From Escherichia phage vB_EcoM_UP17, in sequence record LR746137: a stretch of 64,000 nt of DNA; one strand, 5' to 3'. The stretch's first letter is position 1, and every line of letters begins with the position of its first letter. Of the stretch, positions 1,231-50,524 are shown piece after piece. The notes beneath the pieces are model-generated. The model did not search any database. It had not been told where the DNA came from and worked only from the letters and a program-made list of their open reading frames with translations. A program made the translations under genes and the position numbers.

Positions 1231-3219
1231 TTGTTAGAAATTAACGCCTCCAAAATTAGTAACGTGGTTACGTTTAAGGTGGACAAGAACAGTCTCAAGG
1301 AAGCAAAAGATGCCGTGTTGAGTGTTCAGAAGTTTGCAAATAAAATGCAACCCACTATGAACATGACCAAGTTTAGACAACAAATGAAAGAGATTGAGCG
1401 TGAACTTAAGAAAGCTCAAACTCAAAGTCAAAAACCTATGCGAGCACCTACTCCCGCTGGAGCGGGTGCTCCTGTAGGAGGATCTGGTAGACCTAGAACT
1501 CCTAAAACCCCGCAAGGAAGAGAAGAAGAAAAAGCTCGTAAAGCTGCTGAACGCGAAGCTAAAGCAGCAGCACGTAGGGAAGATTTAGGTAATCTTCGTT
1601 TGCAGAACTTTAACTACAGAGCAAGAGCATTTAGTAAAGCCAGTCCAGGCGCTATGCAAGAAGCTAGGGACGTTATGGGTAAAGCTGTAGAGCAATACAA
1701 AAAGGGTGAAATAACTCTTCAACGTATGAACCAAGCTCTTGCTCACCAGTTAGATGCCTTACGCAGATCTCATCGTGAAAAGAATGCTGAAATAGAAGAC
1801 GAGGTTCGCGGTCGTCGCCGTATTCGTAGAGAGCTAGAAGCAGAAGCTAAAATGCGTATACGTATGCGAAATCGTGAACTTAGAGATATAGAACGCAACC
1901 GTAAGCGTGAATTAGCTCAACAAAAACGTGATCGTGATCGTCGATATGGACAATTAAAAGAAGGTGCGGCAGGTCTTAATCCACGCATGATTGCATCCTC
2001 TTTGATAGGTGCTGGGCTGTTTGCAGGTGGTTCTGTAGTTGGTAACACGTTGATGAATACTAATGAAAGAATTAAACTTGTAAGTCGTGGTGCTGAAAAC
2101 GTTCAGACAAACGCCAACGCTATTTTGGCAATGACAGCTTGGGGTGAACAGAACGGTGTGGACTCTGCAAATATTATTAAATCAATAGATAATATTAAAG
2201 ACGTTCGTGAACGTCTTGGTAATACAGTTTTAGCTGCAAAGTGGAATGAGAAAGAAGGGAAGTGGAAAGGCGGTGATAATGGCATAACTGACATTATGAA
2301 CTTGTTTGGATGGAATCCAGAACAGCTTAAACCTTTACAGAACGATCCTTTAGCTTTTATTCAGGCTACTGTTAATGAAGGTGAGCGTCGAGGTATGAAC
2401 TCTGCTCAAATCGGGCGACTTCTTGAAAACCTTGGTGATGACCTTATGCACTACCAACGTATGTTTAGTAAAAACGGCGAAGGGTATAATGAAGTATTGA
2501 AAATGCTTCAAAGAACAGGTGCAACATTAACTCAAGAACAAATAGATGCTTCTAAAGAGTTTACTCGTTTTGCTGCAACAGTTCAGCTTGTAGGTCAAGG
2601 TATGCAGAACCATTTCTTAGAGGGTTTTGTAAAAGCTTTACCTAAAGATGATTCTTGGTTGGATAACGTTAAAGTGCTAGATCAGTTCGCCAAAGATTTA
2701 GGTGAAGAACTTGGTAAAACAACAGTTCAACTTGGTGGTTTTGCTAAAGAATTAGGAGATGGTTTCGGATCTTTTACCAATTGGCTTAAAGAAACATTCC
2801 CAGATACCTTCGGAGACAACACAGATCCTAATAAATCTTTGGCACAAAAAGCATACGAGGCAACGCAAAGTGGAGACAGCAATCCTGTAGCAGATTGGTT
2901 GTACAATTTAACAGGTATTGATACACAAGATATTGGTCGTATGTGGAGAGGAGAACAAACAAGGACACGTGCTTTTGGATTTGGTAATCCTCTTGAAGAT
3001 TTACGTGAATCAGCCTATACACCTAACGTAAGTTTGGCTCGTAATCAACCTGTTGTTGAGAATACGGTAGCAATACCAAGTGATCTTATCAAAGTTACGA
3101 TCAGCCCTTCTTCCGAGTTTGGAAATATTCTTGATGCAAGAATTCAAAATAGCGGAAATAGTATTTTCCAACGTTTGTCTCTTTCAACTCTAAGTGGACA
3201 ATCTAACACTGGTGGTTAA
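1231..3219 (+). CDS. Tail tape measure protein
   Basis: 662 aa; long K/R/E-rich coiled-coil-like N-terminal third, Gly-rich hydrophobic segment (IASSLIGAGLFAGGSVVG); follows chaperone pair. TTG start with GAGGA RBS. Confidence 0.55.
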   Translation: MLEINASKISNVVTFKVDKNSLKEAKDAVLSVQKFANKMQPTMNMTKFRQQMKEIERELKKAQTQSQKPMRAPTPAGAGAPVGGSGRPRTPKTPQGREEEKARKAAEREAKAAARREDLGNLRLQNFNYRARAFSKASPGAMQEARDVMGKAVEQYKKGEITLQRMNQALAHQLDALRRSHREKNAEIEDEVRGRRRIRRELEAEAKMRIRMRNRELRDIERNRKRELAQQKRDRDRRYGQLKEGAAGLNPRMIASSLIGAGLFAGGSVVGNTLMNTNERIKLVSRGAENVQTNANAILAMTAWGEQNGVDSANIIKSIDNIKDVRERLGNTVLAAKWNEKEGKWKGGDNGITDIMNLFGWNPEQLKPLQNDPLAFIQATVNEGERRGMNSAQIGRLLENLGDDLMHYQRMFSKNGEGYNEVLKMLQRTGATLTQEQIDASKEFTRFAATVQLVGQGMQNHFLEGFVKALPKDDSWLDNVKVLDQFAKDLGEELGKTTVQLGGFAKELGDGFGSFTNWLKETFPDTFGDNTDPNKSLAQKAYEATQSGDSNPVADWLYNLTGIDTQDIGRMWRGEQTRTRAFGFGNPLEDLRESAYTPNVSLARNQPVVENTVAIPSDLIKVTISPSSEFGNILDARIQNSGNSIFQRLSLSTLSGQSNTGG

Positions 3220-3226
3220 TAAAATA

Positions 3227-3249
3227 CCTCGCTTCGGCGGGGTTTTTTC
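3227..3249 (+). terminator. Rho-independent terminator
   Basis: CCTCGC-TTCG-GCGGGG hairpin followed by TTTTTTCGTTT directly after the stop at 3219. Confidence 0.65.
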
Positions 3250-3256
3250 GTTTCCC

Positions 3257-3286
3257 TTGACACGAAGTTTCTATATGTGTTACAAT
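3257..3286 (+). promoter_or_regulatory. Sigma70-like promoter (TTGACA-N18-TACAAT)
   Basis: TTGACA at 3257-3262, 18-nt spacer, TACAAT at 3281-3286; about 60 nt upstream of the ATG at 3346. Confidence 0.45.
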
Positions 3287-35902: not shown

Positions 35903-36181
35903 TTAAAATGGTTCGTTAGTCTCCATCATATATTCTGCTTCTAGTTCTTCCATGTGCTTTCTAAATTGGAAAGCAATTTCTGCTACAGTTACATTTAAAT
36001 CTTTTTCAAAAACTTCTGTAGAGCCTTCGTAAAAACGAATACCGTCAATTAAAAGCCCTCCGTGGTAATCCCAATCACTTTCACGAGAAAGCGGGTTAGG
36101 CTCTTCATAATAGTAATCCACCTCCACGACTAAGGCTTTCCCGTTACGAGTGGTGTATTCAAAATCAAAAGTGTTAATCAT
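35903..36181 (-). CDS. Hypothetical protein
   Basis: 92 aa ORF; stop/start overlap with the downstream gene. Confidence 0.5.
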   Translation of the reverse strand: MINTFDFEYTTRNGKALVVEVDYYYEEPNPLSRESDWDYHGGLLIDGIRFYEGSTEVFEKDLNVTVAEIAFQFRKHMEELEAEYMMETNEPF

Positions 36182-37125
36182 TATAGCTCCTCAAATAAAA
36201 GTCTACGACGCTCATTCAACACATCAATGTGATAATGAGTCCTGACATACTTAGCTAATGCTAATCCTTTCTCCATGCAAACATCGGGAGCACTTAATAA
36301 GTATTCCGTAATATCTTTCCACTCGGAAGGTGTTTCAGCAAAGAATAGCAGATCTTTAAACTCTTGTGTATGATAATTCTCACGAGGAGAACAGATCAAA
36401 GGTAAACCCTTAGCACCTGCCTCAAGAATTTTAAGATTGCTTTTTGCATTGTTAAACACGTTATCAATCAATGGCGCAAGACTGATTTGATGACCATCGT
36501 AAGATTCCATGTAGTTGGCATATGGTCTTACACCTTCATAAACACAAGTTGGTGCTACATTTTCTCTGATCACAGACCATTCACGACTACTTAAAACTTC
36601 AGAATCCCTACGAAAACCACATATTGTAAGATCTTTACCAAAATCGGGCAAGATAGCCAAATCTTGTTTATGTGTTTCACTTCCAGCCCAGACTAATGGA
36701 GTTTTGGAGTAGCGATCACGGGTCAACACAAATTGGCCTTCATCGTAAGGAAGTCCATTAGGGATTATGTGCACATTATCATTGTATTGTGAAAGTTCAA
36801 CTTGCAAAGCAGGTGTCGTAGTTGTAACAAGATCGCTGTGCTCTAAAAACCATTTTAAATGTTCACGAATACCTGATTCAAAAATACCTTCTAACATGTG
36901 TCCTTTTGGAATAACTAAAGAGTCATCCAAATCCATAACCATTTTAAAGCCTAGGTTTTTAAGGGCTAAAAAGCCCTCTTTACCTTTTGTTGGCACCCCG
37001 TTAAAAACGAAAACGTTGTGTTTAGGTTGTGAAGAGAACTGCCTTGAGTAAGGCAGCACTACCCTATGGAAATCGCAGACACTATAATTGATTCCGTTAC
37101 GATTGTCAAGAATTATTTGTCCCAT
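36181..37125 (-). CDS. Glycosyltransferase (GT-B-like), paralog 1
   Basis: 314 aa; clearly paralogous to the adjacent 315 aa protein (NNAKSNLKILEAGAKGLPLICS vs NNCKSNLKILEAGAKGIPIVCS; shared WAG..H..DL and NALP(F/Y)D.GQF blocks). Confidence 0.5.
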   Translation of the reverse strand: MGQIILDNRNGINYSVCDFHRVVLPYSRQFSSQPKHNVFVFNGVPTKGKEGFLALKNLGFKMVMDLDDSLVIPKGHMLEGIFESGIREHLKWFLEHSDLVTTTTPALQVELSQYNDNVHIIPNGLPYDEGQFVLTRDRYSKTPLVWAGSETHKQDLAILPDFGKDLTICGFRRDSEVLSSREWSVIRENVAPTCVYEGVRPYANYMESYDGHQISLAPLIDNVFNNAKSNLKILEAGAKGLPLICSPRENYHTQEFKDLLFFAETPSEWKDITEYLLSAPDVCMEKGLALAKYVRTHYHIDVLNERRRLLFEEL

Positions 37126-37132
37126 ACTTCAC

Positions 37133-38080
37133 CTACAAACTTTCAATAACCTGGCGTCGCAACTCGTTTGCATCTGCCAGATTATAATGTGTTCGAACAT
37201 GTTCAGCCAAGAACAAGCCACGATCTTCCCGATAGTTTGGATTGCGAAGAAGCTTAACAATTTCGTAATGCCATTCTGCTTTATTCTCTGCGTAAGCAAC
37301 AGCGCGAGCATCTACAGGGTTAAAATAAGGTAATACCTTAGAACAAACAATTGGAATACCTTTTGCTCCAGCTTCCAGGATTTTGAGATTACTTTTACAA
37401 TTATTAAAATCATTATCTACCAAAGGAGCTATAGCAATAGCATGACTTTCGTAAACACTCATGTAATTATCTAAATCTTTTACAGCGGCTTTATATTTGG
37501 CATTTGGTAAATTTCTGCGAATCTTAATCCACTCTTGTCCTGTGATGCTTTGTGATGCTTCATATCCCGCAATAGTAAGAAGTTCATCATCGAAAGTATT
37601 AGAGACTAGTCGTAAGTCTGGTTCGTGACTAGCACCGCCAGCCCATACAACAGGGGTACCGGATGAACGATCATTTGACAAAGTGAATTGTCCACTATCA
37701 AAAGGAAGTGCATTTCGGATCACAACAACATTCCTATTTAAGTGACGGATCTTATATGCCAAATATTCCGTGGTTACAATAACCACATCCGCAAGCTTAA
37801 CCATAGCTACAATAGCATGAGTGTTTGACTCGTATAGACTTGCTAAATAATGTTCTGGATTGAGTTGGTAGAAATCATCTAAATCTACAACAATCTTAAC
37901 ACCTTGACGTTTCAAAGATAAAACGTATTCTGCACCTTTAGAGTGGATACGGTTAAACACAACAACATCTTTCTTAGGTTGAATATTATTGTTGTTAAAG
38001 GGCATAACAATACGATGATAGTCACAACCGCTATGAGGTTTTGCATCAATTTTTAGTTTAGACCATTTTTTATTTGACAT
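37133..38080 (-). CDS. Glycosyltransferase (GT-B-like), paralog 2
   Basis: 315 aa tandem paralog of 36181..37125; contains a 10-bp tandem direct repeat at 37541-37560. Confidence 0.5.
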   Translation of the reverse strand: MSNKKWSKLKIDAKPHSGCDYHRIVMPFNNNNIQPKKDVVVFNRIHSKGAEYVLSLKRQGVKIVVDLDDFYQLNPEHYLASLYESNTHAIVAMVKLADVVIVTTEYLAYKIRHLNRNVVVIRNALPFDSGQFTLSNDRSSGTPVVWAGGASHEPDLRLVSNTFDDELLTIAGYEASQSITGQEWIKIRRNLPNAKYKAAVKDLDNYMSVYESHAIAIAPLVDNDFNNCKSNLKILEAGAKGIPIVCSKVLPYFNPVDARAVAYAENKAEWHYEIVKLLRNPNYREDRGLFLAEHVRTHYNLADANELRRQVIESL

Positions 38081-38753
38081 GTGCTAGTGCCTCCTCATAG
38101 GAAATTCGGATTTTCCCATTTTTAATATCCTCTAAAGATGCTTTATATTCTTCCCAGTTAATCCCAATAGCAGCTTCTTTCTCTTCTTTTGTCAGATTAG
38201 CAAAAGGCATAGGATTGTTTCCAAAAACATCGTCTGGGTGGATATAAGCCATGATACGAAGTGGACAAGGTGTTGCCTGAATACCATGATTCAAACCAGC
38301 AGCTTGCAAACGGTGTCCCCATTCAGCATCTTCAAAACCATAACCGTGAGTGTAAGGACGGAAATAACCCATCTTCTCAACAACGGCACGAGAATACATT
38401 GCAAATTGACACATTGCAAGTTCCCAGAGAATAACTTCTCCTTTGCTTCCAACAACTTTATCTTTGAAATACTCCGGCATACCAAAGAAATCCCATCCTC
38501 CAGAGACAGCTTGATCTACAAAGTATGTTTCCCATCCCTCCATGACTGGGTAGCAATCGTCGTCAAAAATAAACCAATAATCATAACCTTCTTCATAAAA
38601 CTGGTGCATAAGTTCATTCCTGGCATAAGCTACACCTTTACGATCTGGATCGTTGAATACTCGAAAATCTGCACGTGGATCTGTTACAAGGTAGTCTTTA
38701 AGTGGACGGACACCTACAGTGATAACACCCACTCCGATTTTAATATTTTCCAT
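38070..38753 (-). CDS. Glycosyltransferase, GT-A fold (DxD type)
   Basis: N-terminal IGVGVITVGVRP; DDD (FIFDDDCY) motif and YGFEDAEW block typical of GT2-like enzymes. Confidence 0.45.
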   Translation of the reverse strand: MENIKIGVGVITVGVRPLKDYLVTDPRADFRVFNDPDRKGVAYARNELMHQFYEEGYDYWFIFDDDCYPVMEGWETYFVDQAVSGGWDFFGMPEYFKDKVVGSKGEVILWELAMCQFAMYSRAVVEKMGYFRPYTHGYGFEDAEWGHRLQAAGLNHGIQATPCPLRIMAYIHPDDVFGNNPMPFANLTKEEKEAAIGINWEEYKASLEDIKNGKIRISYEEALAHVK

Positions 38754-38761
38754 TTTCTCTC

Positions 38762-39325
38762 CTAAATAGTTTTACTGTGATCATGACAGTGTAATAAATG
38801 ATGTATAGACCGTTGAGGATTTGTTTGACCTAATCTGTAAATGTGAAACAGATACATTCCCCGCATCAATCCTAACCTCTTTCCTTTTTCATGTAAAGTG
38901 CGAGAGAAAATTAAGTCGAATTGGATAGATTTTTCTTCGAAAGGAATTTCATTCCACAATGATTTTCTAAAAAGCAAAAAGAAACCTGCCAGAGGTGTTC
39001 CGAAAGGAACTTCTTCAACATTTACTTTATGATATTCTCTTGCAATCTTAGCATATTCTATATGGTTTAGAATATCGGGATCATCGTTAATTTGGTTAGA
39101 GAAAAGCTGATAACCACTACCTAACCTGTTACAAGTTGCACCTATTACATCAAAAGGCGGGTTTGACATAACAAGCTCTTCAAGCAAAGATGGTTGATCA
39201 GGTAGGAGGAACATCGTATCGGTATCTCTTAAACACACCCAACTATCATCTGGAAGAACGGCAATGGCTTCATTGATAGCCTTGCCGATATTTCCTGTCA
39301 GATAGGGAGTAATATAATAAATCAT
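38762..39325 (-). CDS. Possible second GT-A-like glycosyltransferase
   Basis: 187 aa; DxD-like CLRDTDTMF motif; adjacent to three other glycosyltransferases. Confidence 0.35.
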   Translation of the reverse strand: MIYYITPYLTGNIGKAINEAIAVLPDDSWVCLRDTDTMFLLPDQPSLLEELVMSNPPFDVIGATCNRLGSGYQLFSNQINDDPDILNHIEYAKIAREYHKVNVEEVPFGTPLAGFFLLFRKSLWNEIPFEEKSIQFDLIFSRTLHEKGKRLGLMRGMYLFHIYRLGQTNPQRSIHHLLHCHDHSKTI

Positions 39326-40609: not shown

Positions 40610-40630
40610 GAGGGGGATTTCTCCCCCCTC
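40610..40630 (-). terminator. GC-rich hairpin between the TerD-like gene and the hydrolase gene
   Basis: GAGGGGG / CCCCCTC stem with 7-nt loop; only a moderate U-tract on the minus strand. Confidence 0.4.
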
Positions 40631-40648: not shown

Positions 40649-41251
40649 TTATGGACATTCATACCATTCTTTTTTACCACCGAAGGCCATCACCACATCG
40701 CAAATATCCAGACCAGCTTTACCTACACCATATGCTTTCAGCTTCCATTCCCCATCTTCACGAACCAGCGAAGCCACGTGGCAGATTGTGTTGCCAGCTA
40801 CTTCAGGAGCCAGGAAGTCAAAATCCAGAATTTCCACATTGCGCTCGGAGTCGAAGATTTTAAGCATACCTTCAGAAGCATGACCAAAACGTTTCAGACC
40901 TGTATCATCATCAATGGTCAGAACAAAGGCAATCTCTTGTGCATCAGGAGAGATTTTAGCCAGAGTAATATCAATCTGCTCCATGCTGCCAGTTCCATCA
41001 CGAACATCGTCACCAGCGAAGGTAGAACGTTCAGGATCAAACTTGTTAGCATAGCAAACCAGATGACGTGCAGACAGCATTTCAGGATTGCCAGCGGCAT
41101 TATGACGACAAACCAGTGCACTTACATCCAGATCCAGTTTAGAATCAGATTTCCAAGAGAATTCCAGGCGCAGTTCTTTCAGAGCCGGAGCAACTTTCTT
41201 CAGGGAAATTTTTTCGCTAGAACCTTTTTTCAGGGAAATTTTATCAGTCAT
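40649..41251 (-). CDS. TerD-domain protein
   Basis: 200 aa; N-terminal MTDKISLKKGSSEKISLKK; core LDLDVSALV ... GDDVRDGTGSMEQIDITLAKI ... IAFVLTIDD typical of the TerD/CABP fold. Confidence 0.75.
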   Translation of the reverse strand: MTDKISLKKGSSEKISLKKVAPALKELRLEFSWKSDSKLDLDVSALVCRHNAAGNPEMLSARHLVCYANKFDPERSTFAGDDVRDGTGSMEQIDITLAKISPDAQEIAFVLTIDDDTGLKRFGHASEGMLKIFDSERNVEILDFDFLAPEVAGNTICHVASLVREDGEWKLKAYGVGKAGLDICDVVMAFGGKKEWYECP

Positions 41252-41266
41252 CTTTTGTCTCCTCTA

Positions 41267-41536
41267 TTATTTAAGTGTAATACCAGTTACAGTCAATTCT
41301 ACTTCCAAAAGCTTAGATGTGTTTTGGATTGATACTAATTGTGCATGATGGTTTAGTTCTACAGCAGAATAATCATTTTCCCCATCATCTACTTTTAAAT
41401 AAACAATGATTTCACTAAGGTCTAAACCATTTTCGTCAAATGCATTTTCATAGACGAAAGTATCTCCTACATCCAAATCTTTAATGGTAAGGCATCGTTT
41501 ATTTACTTTTTGCTCATCAATTTCGAAGTTTAACAC
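41267..41536 (-). CDS. Small protein, paralog B of a duplicated pair
   Basis: 89 aa; shares (D/K)DLDVG(D/A)TF and V(E/D)L(T/E)VT(G/N)ITLK blocks with 42558..42836. Confidence 0.5.
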   Translation of the reverse strand: MLNFEIDEQKVNKRCLTIKDLDVGDTFVYENAFDENGLDLSEIIVYLKVDDGENDYSAVELNHHAQLVSIQNTSKLLEVELTVTGITLK

Positions 41537-41765
41537 TTCTTCCTCCTAATGTTATCTCCGGTTTGTATATACGAAGAATTATAGCATTTTCATTTTCTTT
41601 GTCAACCCATTCTTCATAATCGGGCCATACATGAATCTCTACTCTACTTACAATATCTTCCATTCGCACAGTCCCAATGAAATACTCTTTGAGACTGCGC
41701 ATAATGAAAGCTTCTCTCTCGCGCCAATAATTTTCTACGACTTGAGAGGCAAGCTCGTCGATCAT
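41517..41765 (-). CDS. Hypothetical protein
   Basis: 82 aa ORF, translationally coupled. Confidence 0.45.
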   Translation of the reverse strand: MIDELASQVVENYWREREAFIMRSLKEYFIGTVRMEDIVSRVEIHVWPDYEEWVDKENENAIILRIYKPEITLGGRSVKLRN

Positions 41766-42556
41766 TTTTTAGCACCTACTTTAACAACCCACTCTCCGAA
41801 CTCTTCAGATAAGAGTTTGTCATAAAGCTCTGAATCTGTCAAGTCTAAATCTTTAATGCCAATAAAACCAACATTATCATAAGCATTTGCCAGTTCTTTC
41901 AGGAAGCCAAACTTCTCATTACCAACGCCAACCATGAACCAATAAATAGGTTTATTCTTATTCTCTTCAATAAGACGACGAACAGCACTAGGATCACCAT
42001 TCTCACCATCCGTTTGGAAGAATACAACACCAGGGGTAACGTCAGCACCTGGTTCAGATACAGCTACAACCTTTTCACGCTCTACAGATACTGTTTCAGT
42101 TTTACCAAGCAGACGATTAAAGAAGCCTTTCTTTGGAGCCTCCTCTTGTACCACTTGTTTAGTGGTAATATATTTGGTAACAGTGCCAAAATACTCGTCG
42201 TAGATATCTGCCATTACAGGGGCGTAGTTTGTTCCACCTCCGATACGAACATTACGCATACATTTACCAACATAATCATCGTAAACGTCTGCTGTTGCTG
42301 GGGTAAGCTCTTGAGAACTCGTATTGAAGGCCCACATATCAATTTGTTCATTATCGTCGAACAGCATACCAAAAGGAAGCAGTTTACCTACAAAATCACT
42401 CACTACCCCACTAGAATATAGACCATGCATACTACCAGAAATATCTAGAGCACATGCTACACGAAGAACAATCTTACCTTCATTCAGGTTCTTATTCTTT
42501 TTCAGAGAGAAAGCAAGGTTTTCTTGACGTTTTTTCAGGCTGATTTTCTCGGACAT
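41762..42556 (-). CDS. vWA-domain protein (TerY-like)
   Basis: MIDAS motif DISGSM; GGTNYAPV; VVFFQTDGENGD; N-terminus MSEKISLKK resembles the start of the TerD-like protein. Confidence 0.6.
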   Translation of the reverse strand: MSEKISLKKRQENLAFSLKKNKNLNEGKIVLRVACALDISGSMHGLYSSGVVSDFVGKLLPFGMLFDDNEQIDMWAFNTSSQELTPATADVYDDYVGKCMRNVRIGGGTNYAPVMADIYDEYFGTVTKYITTKQVVQEEAPKKGFFNRLLGKTETVSVEREKVVAVSEPGADVTPGVVFFQTDGENGDPSAVRRLIEENKNKPIYWFMVGVGNEKFGFLKELANAYDNVGFIGIKDLDLTDSELYDKLLSEEFGEWVVKVGAKK

Positions 42557-42557
42557 A

Positions 42558-42836
42558 TTATTTCTCCTTCTTAAGTGTAATATTGGTAACTTCTAAATCT
42601 ACTTCCACCATATTTGTATCTGGTGGGATGCAATGAGTATAGCCTCGTTGTGCTAGTGATCCATTAATACAGATCGCACTGTTTGTGGAATTTTTAATGA
42701 ACACCAAGTTACGGTAGGTATCCAACCCTGCGTCTTCATAGGCATCATAATACATGAATGTGGCCCCTACGTCAAGATCTTCGAAAGCAATAGGTAAATC
42801 CTGACCTTTTTCTTCTTGAATATTGAATCTAAACAC
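42558..42836 (-). CDS. Small protein, paralog A (start revised to GTG with AGGAGG RBS)
   Basis: GTG at 42836 is preceded by GAGGAG and aligns with the N-terminus of paralog B; the track ATG at 42902 would overlap the upstream gene by 74 nt. Confidence 0.45.
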   Translation of the reverse strand: MFRFNIQEEKGQDLPIAFEDLDVGATFMYYDAYEDAGLDTYRNLVFIKNSTNSAICINGSLAQRGYTHCIPPDTNMVEVDLEVTNITLKKEK

Positions 42837-43392
42837 GCATACCTCCTCTACCAATTTTGAAGCCCAAATCGTAAGCTTCCTTAGTGATCTTTTGTAACTC
42901 ACTTATAGGAAGTGTTACAAGAGGATCATCTTCTTCAATTTCCATCTTGTCATCTTCTGTTTCAATGAGAGTATTATGCACTTTGTGATAAGGGTTGTCA
43001 ACACGTTTAAACTTATTCTTTTCTGTGCTGAAAAAACAATCTGGATCTTCTTCACCATCACCCCAACCTTGATTAGGATCTCCGTCAGATTGTTCTGTAG
43101 GGATTTCACCTGTAAAGTACTCTTCCAGCACCATAGCAATACCGTCCCTTGGATTTGAGGAATGCATTAAATCACAAACCTTACCCCAATCCATAGCCCA
43201 TTCGAACCGTTCACGAACGCCATTTTCATCCTCTTTTCCAGAGAAAACACAACCATAACTATCATAGTTGCCATACATCTCTTCAATAACAACACCGTCT
43301 TTCAAAAGAAAGAGGTAGCAAGGTGATCCGTCGAAAGAAGTAGAAAGGGCAGCTTTGCCCGATTCTTTGCACAAAAAACTAAAACAACCCAT
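42829..43392 (-). CDS. Hypothetical acidic protein
   Basis: 187 aa ORF. Confidence 0.5.
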   Translation of the reverse strand: MGCFSFLCKESGKAALSTSFDGSPCYLFLLKDGVVIEEMYGNYDSYGCVFSGKEDENGVRERFEWAMDWGKVCDLMHSSNPRDGIAMVLEEYFTGEIPTEQSDGDPNQGWGDGEEDPDCFFSTEKNKFKRVDNPYHKVHNTLIETEDDKMEIEEDDPLVTLPISELQKITKEAYDLGFKIGRGGMRV

Positions 43393-48561: not shown

Positions 48562-49035
48562 TTAAAGTTTATAAATAGTCACATCGTGACCTGTTTTTAC
48601 TAAAGTTTCTTCAATCATCACTTGGATGATAGCCCAATTGCCTCCAGCATATCCAGCGCCAATCATAGGTAAGCCGATCTTACATTTTTGGTCACGGAGA
48701 AGCAAATCATTAGCCATAGCTATTAGTGCATCGTAAAGTGCATCATAGTCCAACTGACGACCTTTAGCATTGTATCCGTAACGGTATTGCCCGTATAGAT
48801 TATATACCAAAGGGTCTGATTGTTCGTCTGGCACCCCTAAACTAAAACAACCTAGTTTACTTTGATCACCAGCCATTGTGTCTAAGTCTGCTGCATATGC
48901 GTAAGGAAATGCTTGTTTGATTTGTGGGGCAATACCTGCCCCCATATTACACATACAGTTGCAACAATGAGCAATAACAGTTACTTCACCTGCTTTAGCG
49001 GCATCAATAAGATTACCTGTTTTCATTTTAAGCAT
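48562..49035 (-). CDS. Macro-domain protein (ADP-ribose binding/processing)
   Basis: VIAHCCNCMCNMGAGIA and IGAGYAGG resemble the macro-domain VNAAN...GGGV and G-rich phosphate-binding loops; 157 aa. Confidence 0.55.
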   Translation of the reverse strand: MLKMKTGNLIDAAKAGEVTVIAHCCNCMCNMGAGIAPQIKQAFPYAYAADLDTMAGDQSKLGCFSLGVPDEQSDPLVYNLYGQYRYGYNAKGRQLDYDALYDALIAMANDLLLRDQKCKIGLPMIGAGYAGGNWAIIQVMIEETLVKTGHDVTIYKL

Positions 49036-49047
49036 TTTAGCTCCTTA

Positions 49048-49875
49048 TTACAGAATGTGTTGTTTTGTGTAACGATCCAAGAATTCAAAGTTTTCAGCAT
49101 ACTTTGAAATTCGGTTGTAACCTTCTCCCAAACATCCGAAGAAAAGTTGCTCTACATAGTAGTGTGGCAATTGGCTAAGAATGATTTTGAAGTCTTCGTG
49201 ATTTTGGCCCATAAGATACTTAATAGGACGAACAAGGCACTGTGCATCACGTTCTTCATTAATCATTTTAACAAACGCTTCTGGTGTATTAATGTAGTTA
49301 AAATTCAGTTTAGCTTCGGTATCTGCTTGATTACCTTCATATTTTGCAAAATACAAGAAGTAAACATCATTTTTAACTTGATTTTCATCAAGGATCTCAA
49401 TCAGTTTGTCTTCATGCGTTCCAGTGATATTTACATCATCAATGAATACAAGCTTCTTATCACCCCAGAATTCTTTGTTGCAGTAGAATGTATCCCCATC
49501 AATAAGTTTCTTACGACTAGCTTTATCCAAGAAACCATAATCGTTGATATAGCTAACTTTACGATGAATAATGTCCAGTTCTGCTGAACGACCTTGATCA
49601 TATTGTGATTGCAACATGTTAAAGTAATTAATAAAATGATCTGTCATCATTGTTGCAGCATTATGCACATGGTTGTAAGGAGAAGGAATGATAACAAATT
49701 GTTCCCCAATATGTTTCATTGCCACTTGAGCAAAAAACTGAAGTGCCAATTCTTTACCCATACGACGCGCGGCTTGGTTACTACCAAATTTCAATTTTGA
49801 ATAATCTTGGATATCAAAAGTAGCAGTTTCCAGGTCATCAAATTTATTTGCAAAAATTTGAGTTTGATTACGCAT
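49048..49875 (-). CDS. Phosphoribosyltransferase (PRTase-type) protein
   Basis: KKLVFIDDVNITGTHED matches the PRPP-binding hhhhDDhxxTGxT signature; 275 aa. Confidence 0.55.
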   Translation of the reverse strand: MRNQTQIFANKFDDLETATFDIQDYSKLKFGSNQAARRMGKELALQFFAQVAMKHIGEQFVIIPSPYNHVHNAATMMTDHFINYFNMLQSQYDQGRSAELDIIHRKVSYINDYGFLDKASRKKLIDGDTFYCNKEFWGDKKLVFIDDVNITGTHEDKLIEILDENQVKNDVYFLYFAKYEGNQADTEAKLNFNYINTPEAFVKMINEERDAQCLVRPIKYLMGQNHEDFKIILSQLPHYYVEQLFFGCLGEGYNRISKYAENFEFLDRYTKQHIL

Positions 49876-50524
49876 TTACAATTTCTCCTCTTTTAAGTTT
49901 CTCTAGTAAGTCATTAGGGTTCTTAATATGACAGAAGTTAAATCCTAAGTCAACACATTTTCCATCATATTCTTCACTATCGCCTACGTGCAATACTTCG
50001 TGCCCTAACAGAGGGATCGGAGAATACGTGAGCGTGCGAGCAAAGAATCGCGGATCTGGTTTACAAAGTAAAGCTTCATCCGAGAAATGGGTGAACTCAA
50101 AACAATTCCAACTATCAAACTTACAAGCACGACGCAGGATATCCCCTGATATGAAGTTGGTATTGCTCTTAATACTCAAATCATAACGTCCCGAAAGATA
50201 CAGCAAGTACATCGGCAGATCCACGGCTACGTGTGGTGGAAACTTAAGGAACCACTGTTCACACTCGAAACGAAGCTTTGCAGACTTCCAAGGTGTTATC
50301 CCAAGTTCAGAACCAAGTCTTTCCCAGGCGTATGCTGCACACTCGGCTTTGCCTTGAAGTGCTGCATTATCCAGTTCCTTTTTGATCTTCTTATAAGCTG
50401 CTCTTGCTTCCACTTCCGTAATATCTCCATATTTTGCGATAGTCCAGGCTCGCATGTCTGCGTAATTGGAGTTTGCTGTGATCAGTGTGTTCCATACATC
50501 AAAAGAGATATGTTTAATAGTCAT
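49868..50524 (-). CDS. HAD-superfamily hydrolase/phosphatase
   Basis: Motif I-like ISFDVWNTLI (DxYGTL-type variant), KPDP motif, HVGDSEEYD motif IV. Confidence 0.55.
   Translation of the reverse strand: MTIKHISFDVWNTLITANSNYADMRAWTIAKYGDITEVEARAAYKKIKKELDNAALQGKAECAAYAWERLGSELGITPWKSAKLRFECEQWFLKFPPHVAVDLPMYLLYLSGRYDLSIKSNTNFISGDILRRACKFDSWNCFEFTHFSDEALLCKPDPRFFARTLTYSPIPLLGHEVLHVGDSEEYDGKCVDLGFNFCHIKNPNDLLEKLKRGEIVNA

Follow-up and report, generated by a model that had tools for sequence, protein, structure and literature searches.

The window analysed here, 64,000 nucleotides from Escherichia phage vB_EcoM_UP17 (LR746137), belongs to a phAPEC8-like coliphage (Phapecoctavirus, Stephanstirmvirinae), with 98-99% identity to phAPEC8 and about 60 other Phapecoctavirus genomes. 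Two small genes, here called small A and small B, both sit within a minus-strand block that constitutes a phage-borne Ter cluster, in which genes for PRTase_3, HAD, Macro, TerC, SprT-like, TelA, vWA-TerF-like and TerD proteins all lie on one strand (Table 1). Ter clusters occur widely, in bacteria, on plasmids and in phages, and are linked to phage exclusion and to colicin and tellurite resistance; their definition as stress-response/phage-exclusion clusters containing TerC, TelA, TerD, TerF-type vWA, PRTase and HAD components reportedly goes back to Anantharaman, Iyer and Aravind in 2012. Several records (MG065650, MG065656, MG065639 and others, OP562383 and OR584014) are labelled as Campylobacter, Acinetobacter or Pseudomonas phages. 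In sequence these records hardly differ from Phapecoctavirus or Justusliebigvirus genomes of E. coli, and their host labels look doubtful (contamination or mislabelling).

Table 1. Genes and candidate signals of the Ter cluster in the window, in the direction of transcription, followed by regulatory sites.
Feature	Coordinates	Strand	Remarks
HAD-like gene	50524-49868	-	
PRTase_3	49875-49048	-	PF15610, E=2e-41
Macro-domain gene	49035-48562	-	
TerC	48248-47274	-	
SprT-like gene	45648-45058	-	
TelA	45061-43949	-	
Three tiny ORFs and a 187-aa ORF	between TelA and small A	-	
Small A	42836-42558	-	92 aa, PHROG 11278, pI 4.4
vWA-TerF-like gene	42556-41762	-	264 aa, PF10138
82-aa ORF	41765-41517	-	PHROG 22387
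Small B	41536-41267	-	89 aa, PHROG 11278, pI 4.3
TerD	41251-40649	-	200 aa, PF02342
SleB-type cell-wall hydrolase	beyond TerD	-	within the minus-strand block
Promoter-like site, 11/12	42973-43001	-	TTGACA-N17-CATAAT; inside the 187-aa ORF, 165 nt upstream of small A
Predicted sigma-70 promoter, 12/12	41578-41605	-	TTGACA-N16-TATAAT with extended -10 TG; sequence scan
G+C-rich hairpin, weak candidate terminator	40610-40630	-	just past the TerD stop; 8-bp stem, z = -1.55

The PRTase_3, HAD-like and Macro genes (48562-50524) adjoin TerC on its upstream side and resemble the nucleoside-like-metabolite arm of Ter systems. Downstream of the hydrolase, four predicted glycosyltransferase-like genes stand in a row (36181-39325); one of them has a weak TET-associated glycosyltransferase match, and the phi92 orthologs are annotated with glycosyltransferase folds, so this run could be a module for sugar modification of DNA or of the surface. 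Fairly complete Ter systems have been described in phages (Iyer et al. 2021, PMC7824862), with which the gene set of the window agrees, and a Ter cluster has also been noted in phage phiKp34 (PMC8386662). The available portions of both papers mention no SH3-like component of about 90 aa.

Small A and small B are paralogs, as the earlier note had proposed from shared sequence blocks. Their products align without gaps from start to end (29/89 identical, 33%; BLASTP E=5e-13), and both match PHROG 11278 along their entire length (small A residues 1-92 against profile positions 1-92, E=2.2e-50; small B residues 1-89 against 1-89, E=7e-45), an entry that comes without function or context. The blocks quoted in that note are present in both, as DLDVGATF/DLDVGDTF and VDLEVTNITLK/VELTVTGITLK. 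Both genes have GTG starts, each 5-7 nt behind a GGAGG-type ribosome-binding site (RBS), and each lies immediately upstream of a gene whose product begins with a KISLKK-type head, again as noted earlier: 1 nt separates the small A stop from the vWA-TerF-like gene (MSEKISLKK), whose RBS is carried by the last codons (KKEK) of small A, and 15 nt separate the small B stop from TerD (MTDKISLKK). The 82-aa ORF, which the earlier description of a two-gene unit had left out, overlaps its two neighbors, at the vWA stop (ATGA) and over the first 20 nt of small B. Among the 25 loci scanned it was seen only in the split two-copy arrangement. The two small genes are old copies, and their DNA sequences share at most about 55% identity.

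The same note had gone further and suggested that the locus is the product of a duplicated cassette, in which an ancestral small gene and its ISLKK-headed neighbor were copied together and each small protein possibly became a dedicated partner or chaperone of the protein encoded downstream. The immediate adjacency of each small gene to such a neighbor fits this reading, as does the presence of a promoter-like site ahead of each unit. The region has no strong direct repeats apart from the two junctions, each comprising the small 3' end, RBS, start and head; these are 76% identical over 37 and 42 nt between the two units, with equal spacing. We considered this repeat as a mark of unit duplication and rejected it, since the RBS consensus, the ATG and the conserved head codons can account for the match.

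The two downstream proteins are not paralogs, and their homology extends over only about 19 columns. The vWA-TerF-like protein belongs to PF10138 (E=1.7e-37, 130 bits against a cut-off of 29.4) and contains a putative MIDAS-type DISGS motif, with D38-I-S40-G-S42, T109 and D183 invariant or nearly so in 30 homologs. TerD belongs to PF02342 (E=3e-28, 98.9 bits against a cut-off of 25.3) and aligns from residue 5 with solved TerD structures (2KXT, E=1.5e-15; 3IBZ, E=2.9e-14). Compared with each other by BLASTP, the two proteins align in their heads alone (E=0.014), and profile-profile comparison with hhalign recovers 19 N-terminal columns (E=1.3e-4, probability 53%); beyond the heads, one has a vWA fold and the other a TerD fold. 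The AlphaFold2 (AF2) model of the vWA protein also places a long two-stranded beta-hairpin arm (residues 125-141 and 153-169, within 125-169) as an insertion in the vWA fold.

The heads themselves have a wider distribution than the small genes. In the vWA protein, L7, K9, L18 and K20 of the N-terminal segment KISLKKRQENLAFSLKK do not vary among 30 vWA-TerF-like proteins, a set that reaches down to 38% identity and includes bacterial members such as that of Neobacillus. In TerD, the canonical N-terminus KISLKKGSSEKISLKK is conserved in ten phage TerD proteins and aligns with VSLSKGG-NVSLSK of 2KXT and 3IBZ. Bacterial vWA-TerF-like proteins and solved TerD structures carry these heads without a small gene in the vicinity, and so do the TerD proteins of phi92, 05F01 and Tr1, where no small gene lies upstream; the heads are therefore neither a mark of cassette duplication nor limited to neighbors of small genes. 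The alignments instead identify the hSLxK-x-hSLxK head as a real, old and family-wide trait of TerD and vWA-TerF-like proteins. TerD-vWA fusions of the TerF type account for a TerD-like head preceding a vWA domain, and in three such proteins (P0079 to P0081) repeated hxLxK motifs lie between the two domains; unlike these fusions, the vWA protein of the window stands alone and keeps only a head of about 20 residues. This head is predicted to be helical (residues 7-20 in the AF2 model, pLDDT 91), in contrast to the look-alike segment of TerD, which we take to form the first beta-strands in 2KXT. Within the coding sequence for the TerD N-terminus (41192-41263), an internal 30-nt tandem repeat (repeat family D1) encodes KISLKK twice.

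The small proteins form a narrow family. A profile search of 5.8 billion proteins returned 22 clusters, and an exhaustive HMMER search of 1.84 billion representatives returned 20 clusters at E<=1e-3, 19 of them genuine; the remaining one (P0093, 1191 aa) is an FN3-repeat protein whose score was inflated by its repeats, and was discarded as spurious. An alignment query and exhaustive search were needed for this, since small B alone, used in a word-indexed homology search, retrieved just 2 clusters. Genuine members are mostly 87-93 aa long, with two shorter fragments of 54-55 aa, and none of the 19 clusters drawn from the 1.84 billion representatives came from a recognisably bacterial locus. Neither Pfam, scanned with all members, nor the PDB sequences, scanned with the family profile, gave more than noise, and no relatives were found among defence models. 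Invariant or near-invariant positions in the 21 closer members are M1, F4, L21, G24, F27, A32 and G37-L38-D39, as well as A54, N58, V79, L81, V83 and L88; fewer columns stay conserved once distant members are added and identity falls to about 22%.

Structural models predict an SH3-like beta-barrel for the small protein, and the model of the phAPEC8 small B ortholog superposes on that of small A with a TM of 0.80. The predicted fold may be likened to small SH3-like beta-barrel adaptors (HspQ/YccV, FeoA, KOW, Tudor). Structurally it comes closest to ribosomal L2, EF-P/eIF5A, Spt5 KOW and Tudor domains, matches that, together with the promoter-proximal position of the small gene, would suit a nucleic-acid-binding regulator of TerD or vWA transcription or translation, built on a KOW, Tudor or ribosomal L2-like barrel. 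However, each of the 25 aligned members has an acidic pI (4.3-5.4), and this uniform acidity argues against nucleic-acid binding; we regard such a regulator as highly improbable. The conserved N- and C-terminal segments are of lower confidence and unpacked in the monomer model; they may contact a partner or mediate oligomer formation. Two other ideas about the small protein were set aside. Descent from a fragment of the TerD domain, prompted by likenesses of DLDVGATF to DLDVSALV and of the C-terminal ITLKK to ISLKK, was ruled out by hhalign probabilities of 0.5% against TerD and 0.3% against vWA, and by a model that is an SH3-like barrel and not a TerD sandwich. An integrin-type LDV ligand for the MIDAS, located in DLDVG, was dropped since only L21 of this motif is conserved across the family.

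Gene order was compared across 25 loci scanned with HMMs built from our own alignments, 21 of which bear the small family. In every one of these 21 the small gene directly flanks vWA, TerD or both, in one of four arrangements. The commonest is vWA > small > TerD, found in ten metagenomic lineages (L007-L010, L015, L016, L022-L025; the L006 locus is cut), with 8-nt overlaps of vWA and small gene in L009, L016 and L023-L025. The order small > vWA > 82-aa > small > TerD occurs in the window, ESCO13, phiWec179, PsgM04F, L013 and L014; small > vWA > TerD in phi92 and Klebsiella phage 05F01; and vWA > small > small > TerD, a second and tandem duplication, in L011, L012 and L017. Citrobacter phage Tr1, Klebsiella phage KP13-16, Caulobacter phage CcrPW and Pseudomonas phage phiPsa374 have vWA and TerD and no small gene. 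In Tr1 the vWA protein is 67% identical to that of the window and TerD has the same head, and tblastn found no small-family member anywhere in the genome even at E<=10. KP13-16 (L018) has an 87-aa ORF upstream of vWA (3005-3268) with no match to the family HMM, and two tandem TerD genes after vWA, such that the module can vary by duplication of TerD rather than of the small gene. The co-occurrence that the earlier note had proposed to survey holds in one direction, from the small family to vWA/TerD (21/21 loci), but the converse fails: in the phage collection a vWA-TerF-like gene is found in 209 records and the small family in 126, leaving about 83 of the 209 without it.

These arrangements weaken the idea of a dedicated small partner for each Ter protein, since in most lineages a single small gene accompanies the two and Tr1 has none. 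Phages with a single copy (phi92 and 05F01) retain both heads. Coupled with the restriction of vWA-TerD homology to 19 columns, this contradicts the duplication of a two-gene cassette and makes the full model with dedicated chaperones very unlikely; what was duplicated is the small gene alone.

The positional association of the small family with the vWA-TerD pair is strong, and the question is what it reflects. The small genes could be hitchhiker ORFs, such as host-takeover or anti-defence factors, that are unrelated to Ter function and merely inherited their place. Several observations speak for this: the family is confined to one phage group, with no bacterial member found; the other vWA-TerF/TerD phage lineages that we looked at (KP13-16, CcrPW, phiPsa374) showed no trace of it; it has no Pfam, PDB or defence-model relatives; and Tr1 has lost its small gene with vWA and TerD intact. 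Moreover, the loci with the family all come from a single broad phage group that shares a TelA...vWA...TerD-cell-wall-hydrolase synteny, so the adjacency could be partly inherited rather than selected. Yet the small gene has undergone at least three changes of position or copy number and in each case still adjoins vWA or TerD, and two separate duplications of it were kept at the locus. Taking these together with the promoter described below, we consider unrelated passengers a somewhat unlikely explanation that nevertheless deserves weight.

A sequence scan places a perfect sigma-70 promoter inside the 82-aa ORF, about 40 nt upstream of small B, which predicts a transcript carrying small B and TerD. 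Its hexamers are identical, with different spacers, in ESCO13, phiWec179, PsgM04F and L013/L014, and sites scoring 10-11/12 occupy the equivalent place before TerD in phi92, Tr1 and 05F01 and before the small gene in L008 and L017. A conserved promoter common to the small gene and TerD counts against the small genes being mere passengers. The site ahead of small A lies at the same distance in phi92 and PsgM04F, and the evidence for it is weaker than for the small B promoter. At the other end of the predicted transcript, the hairpin past TerD has no U tract and is absent from the scan's calls.

Codon use separates TerD from its neighbors. TerD codons are strongly E. coli-preferred (CTG for 18/19 Leu, CGY for 8/8 Arg), while CTG serves 0/12 Leu codons in small B, 0/7 in small A and 0/16 in the Macro gene. 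This bias suggests a much higher output of TerD than of the small proteins. It argues against equal dosage of small B and TerD, a point against the dedicated-chaperone model, and the small protein is probably sub-stoichiometric. The host-optimised codons of TerD could themselves suggest either very high expression or recent acquisition from a host.

The reading that we prefer, drawn from gene neighborhood, is that the small family is a phage-restricted accessory of the phage-borne Ter module (TelA ... vWA-TerF-like, TerD), for which we see about an even chance; that it is dispensable is suggested by Tr1, which does without it. The starting arrangement was probably vWA > small > TerD, in which a promoter at the end of the vWA gene drove both the small gene and TerD. 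Within Stephanstirmvirinae, a duplication would then have copied just the small gene, with copy A moving to just upstream of vWA and copy B staying upstream of TerD, apparently its ancestral position, where the promoter-bearing 82-aa gene now separates it from vWA. Copy B would later have been lost in phi92 and 05F01, Tr1 would have ended without any copy, and another lineage would have acquired its tandem pair separately. In a neighbor-joining (NJ) tree the proteins at the A position form a clade (77% bootstrap) and the window-type B proteins a weaker one (56%); the B clade joins the A clade in topology only (<50% support), with the between-gene forms of other lineages outside. Since the deep nodes have less than 50% support, the direction of rearrangement is tentative.

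As for mechanism, gene neighborhood suggests a physical or functional link of the small proteins to vWA or TerD, and the small barrel may act through protein-protein contact with one or both, as an adaptor or an assembly or regulatory factor. It is probably neither a 1:1 structural subunit nor a nucleic-acid binder. The heads are the only basic patches on the otherwise acidic TerD and vWA proteins (+3.5 and +4.5). A more specific proposal, which we regard as a long shot, is that the acidic barrel docks on these basic hSLxK-x-hSLxK heads, or offers the near-invariant Asp of its G-L-D loop to the vWA MIDAS, and so couples TerD and vWA into one complex.

Earlier records already covered phage Ter clusters, PHROG 11278 and the heads of TerD and vWA-TerF. 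What our analysis adds is the link of PHROG 11278 to vWA/TerD, the fold predicted for it, the variation in its copy number and position, and the embedded promoter; no member of the family turned up in the Ter loci of bacteria or elsewhere among phage Ter clusters. The cassette idea is corrected in that the ISLKK heads now appear as family-wide N-terminal signatures of two Ter protein families, and the Ter system gains one candidate accessory component. A small phage-only protein that has stayed next to vWA/TerD through several rearrangements is a cheap experimental handle, with a modest practical gain. If the docking proposal were true, it would give a function to the conserved Ter heads and provide a tractable protein-interaction handle on the Ter system.
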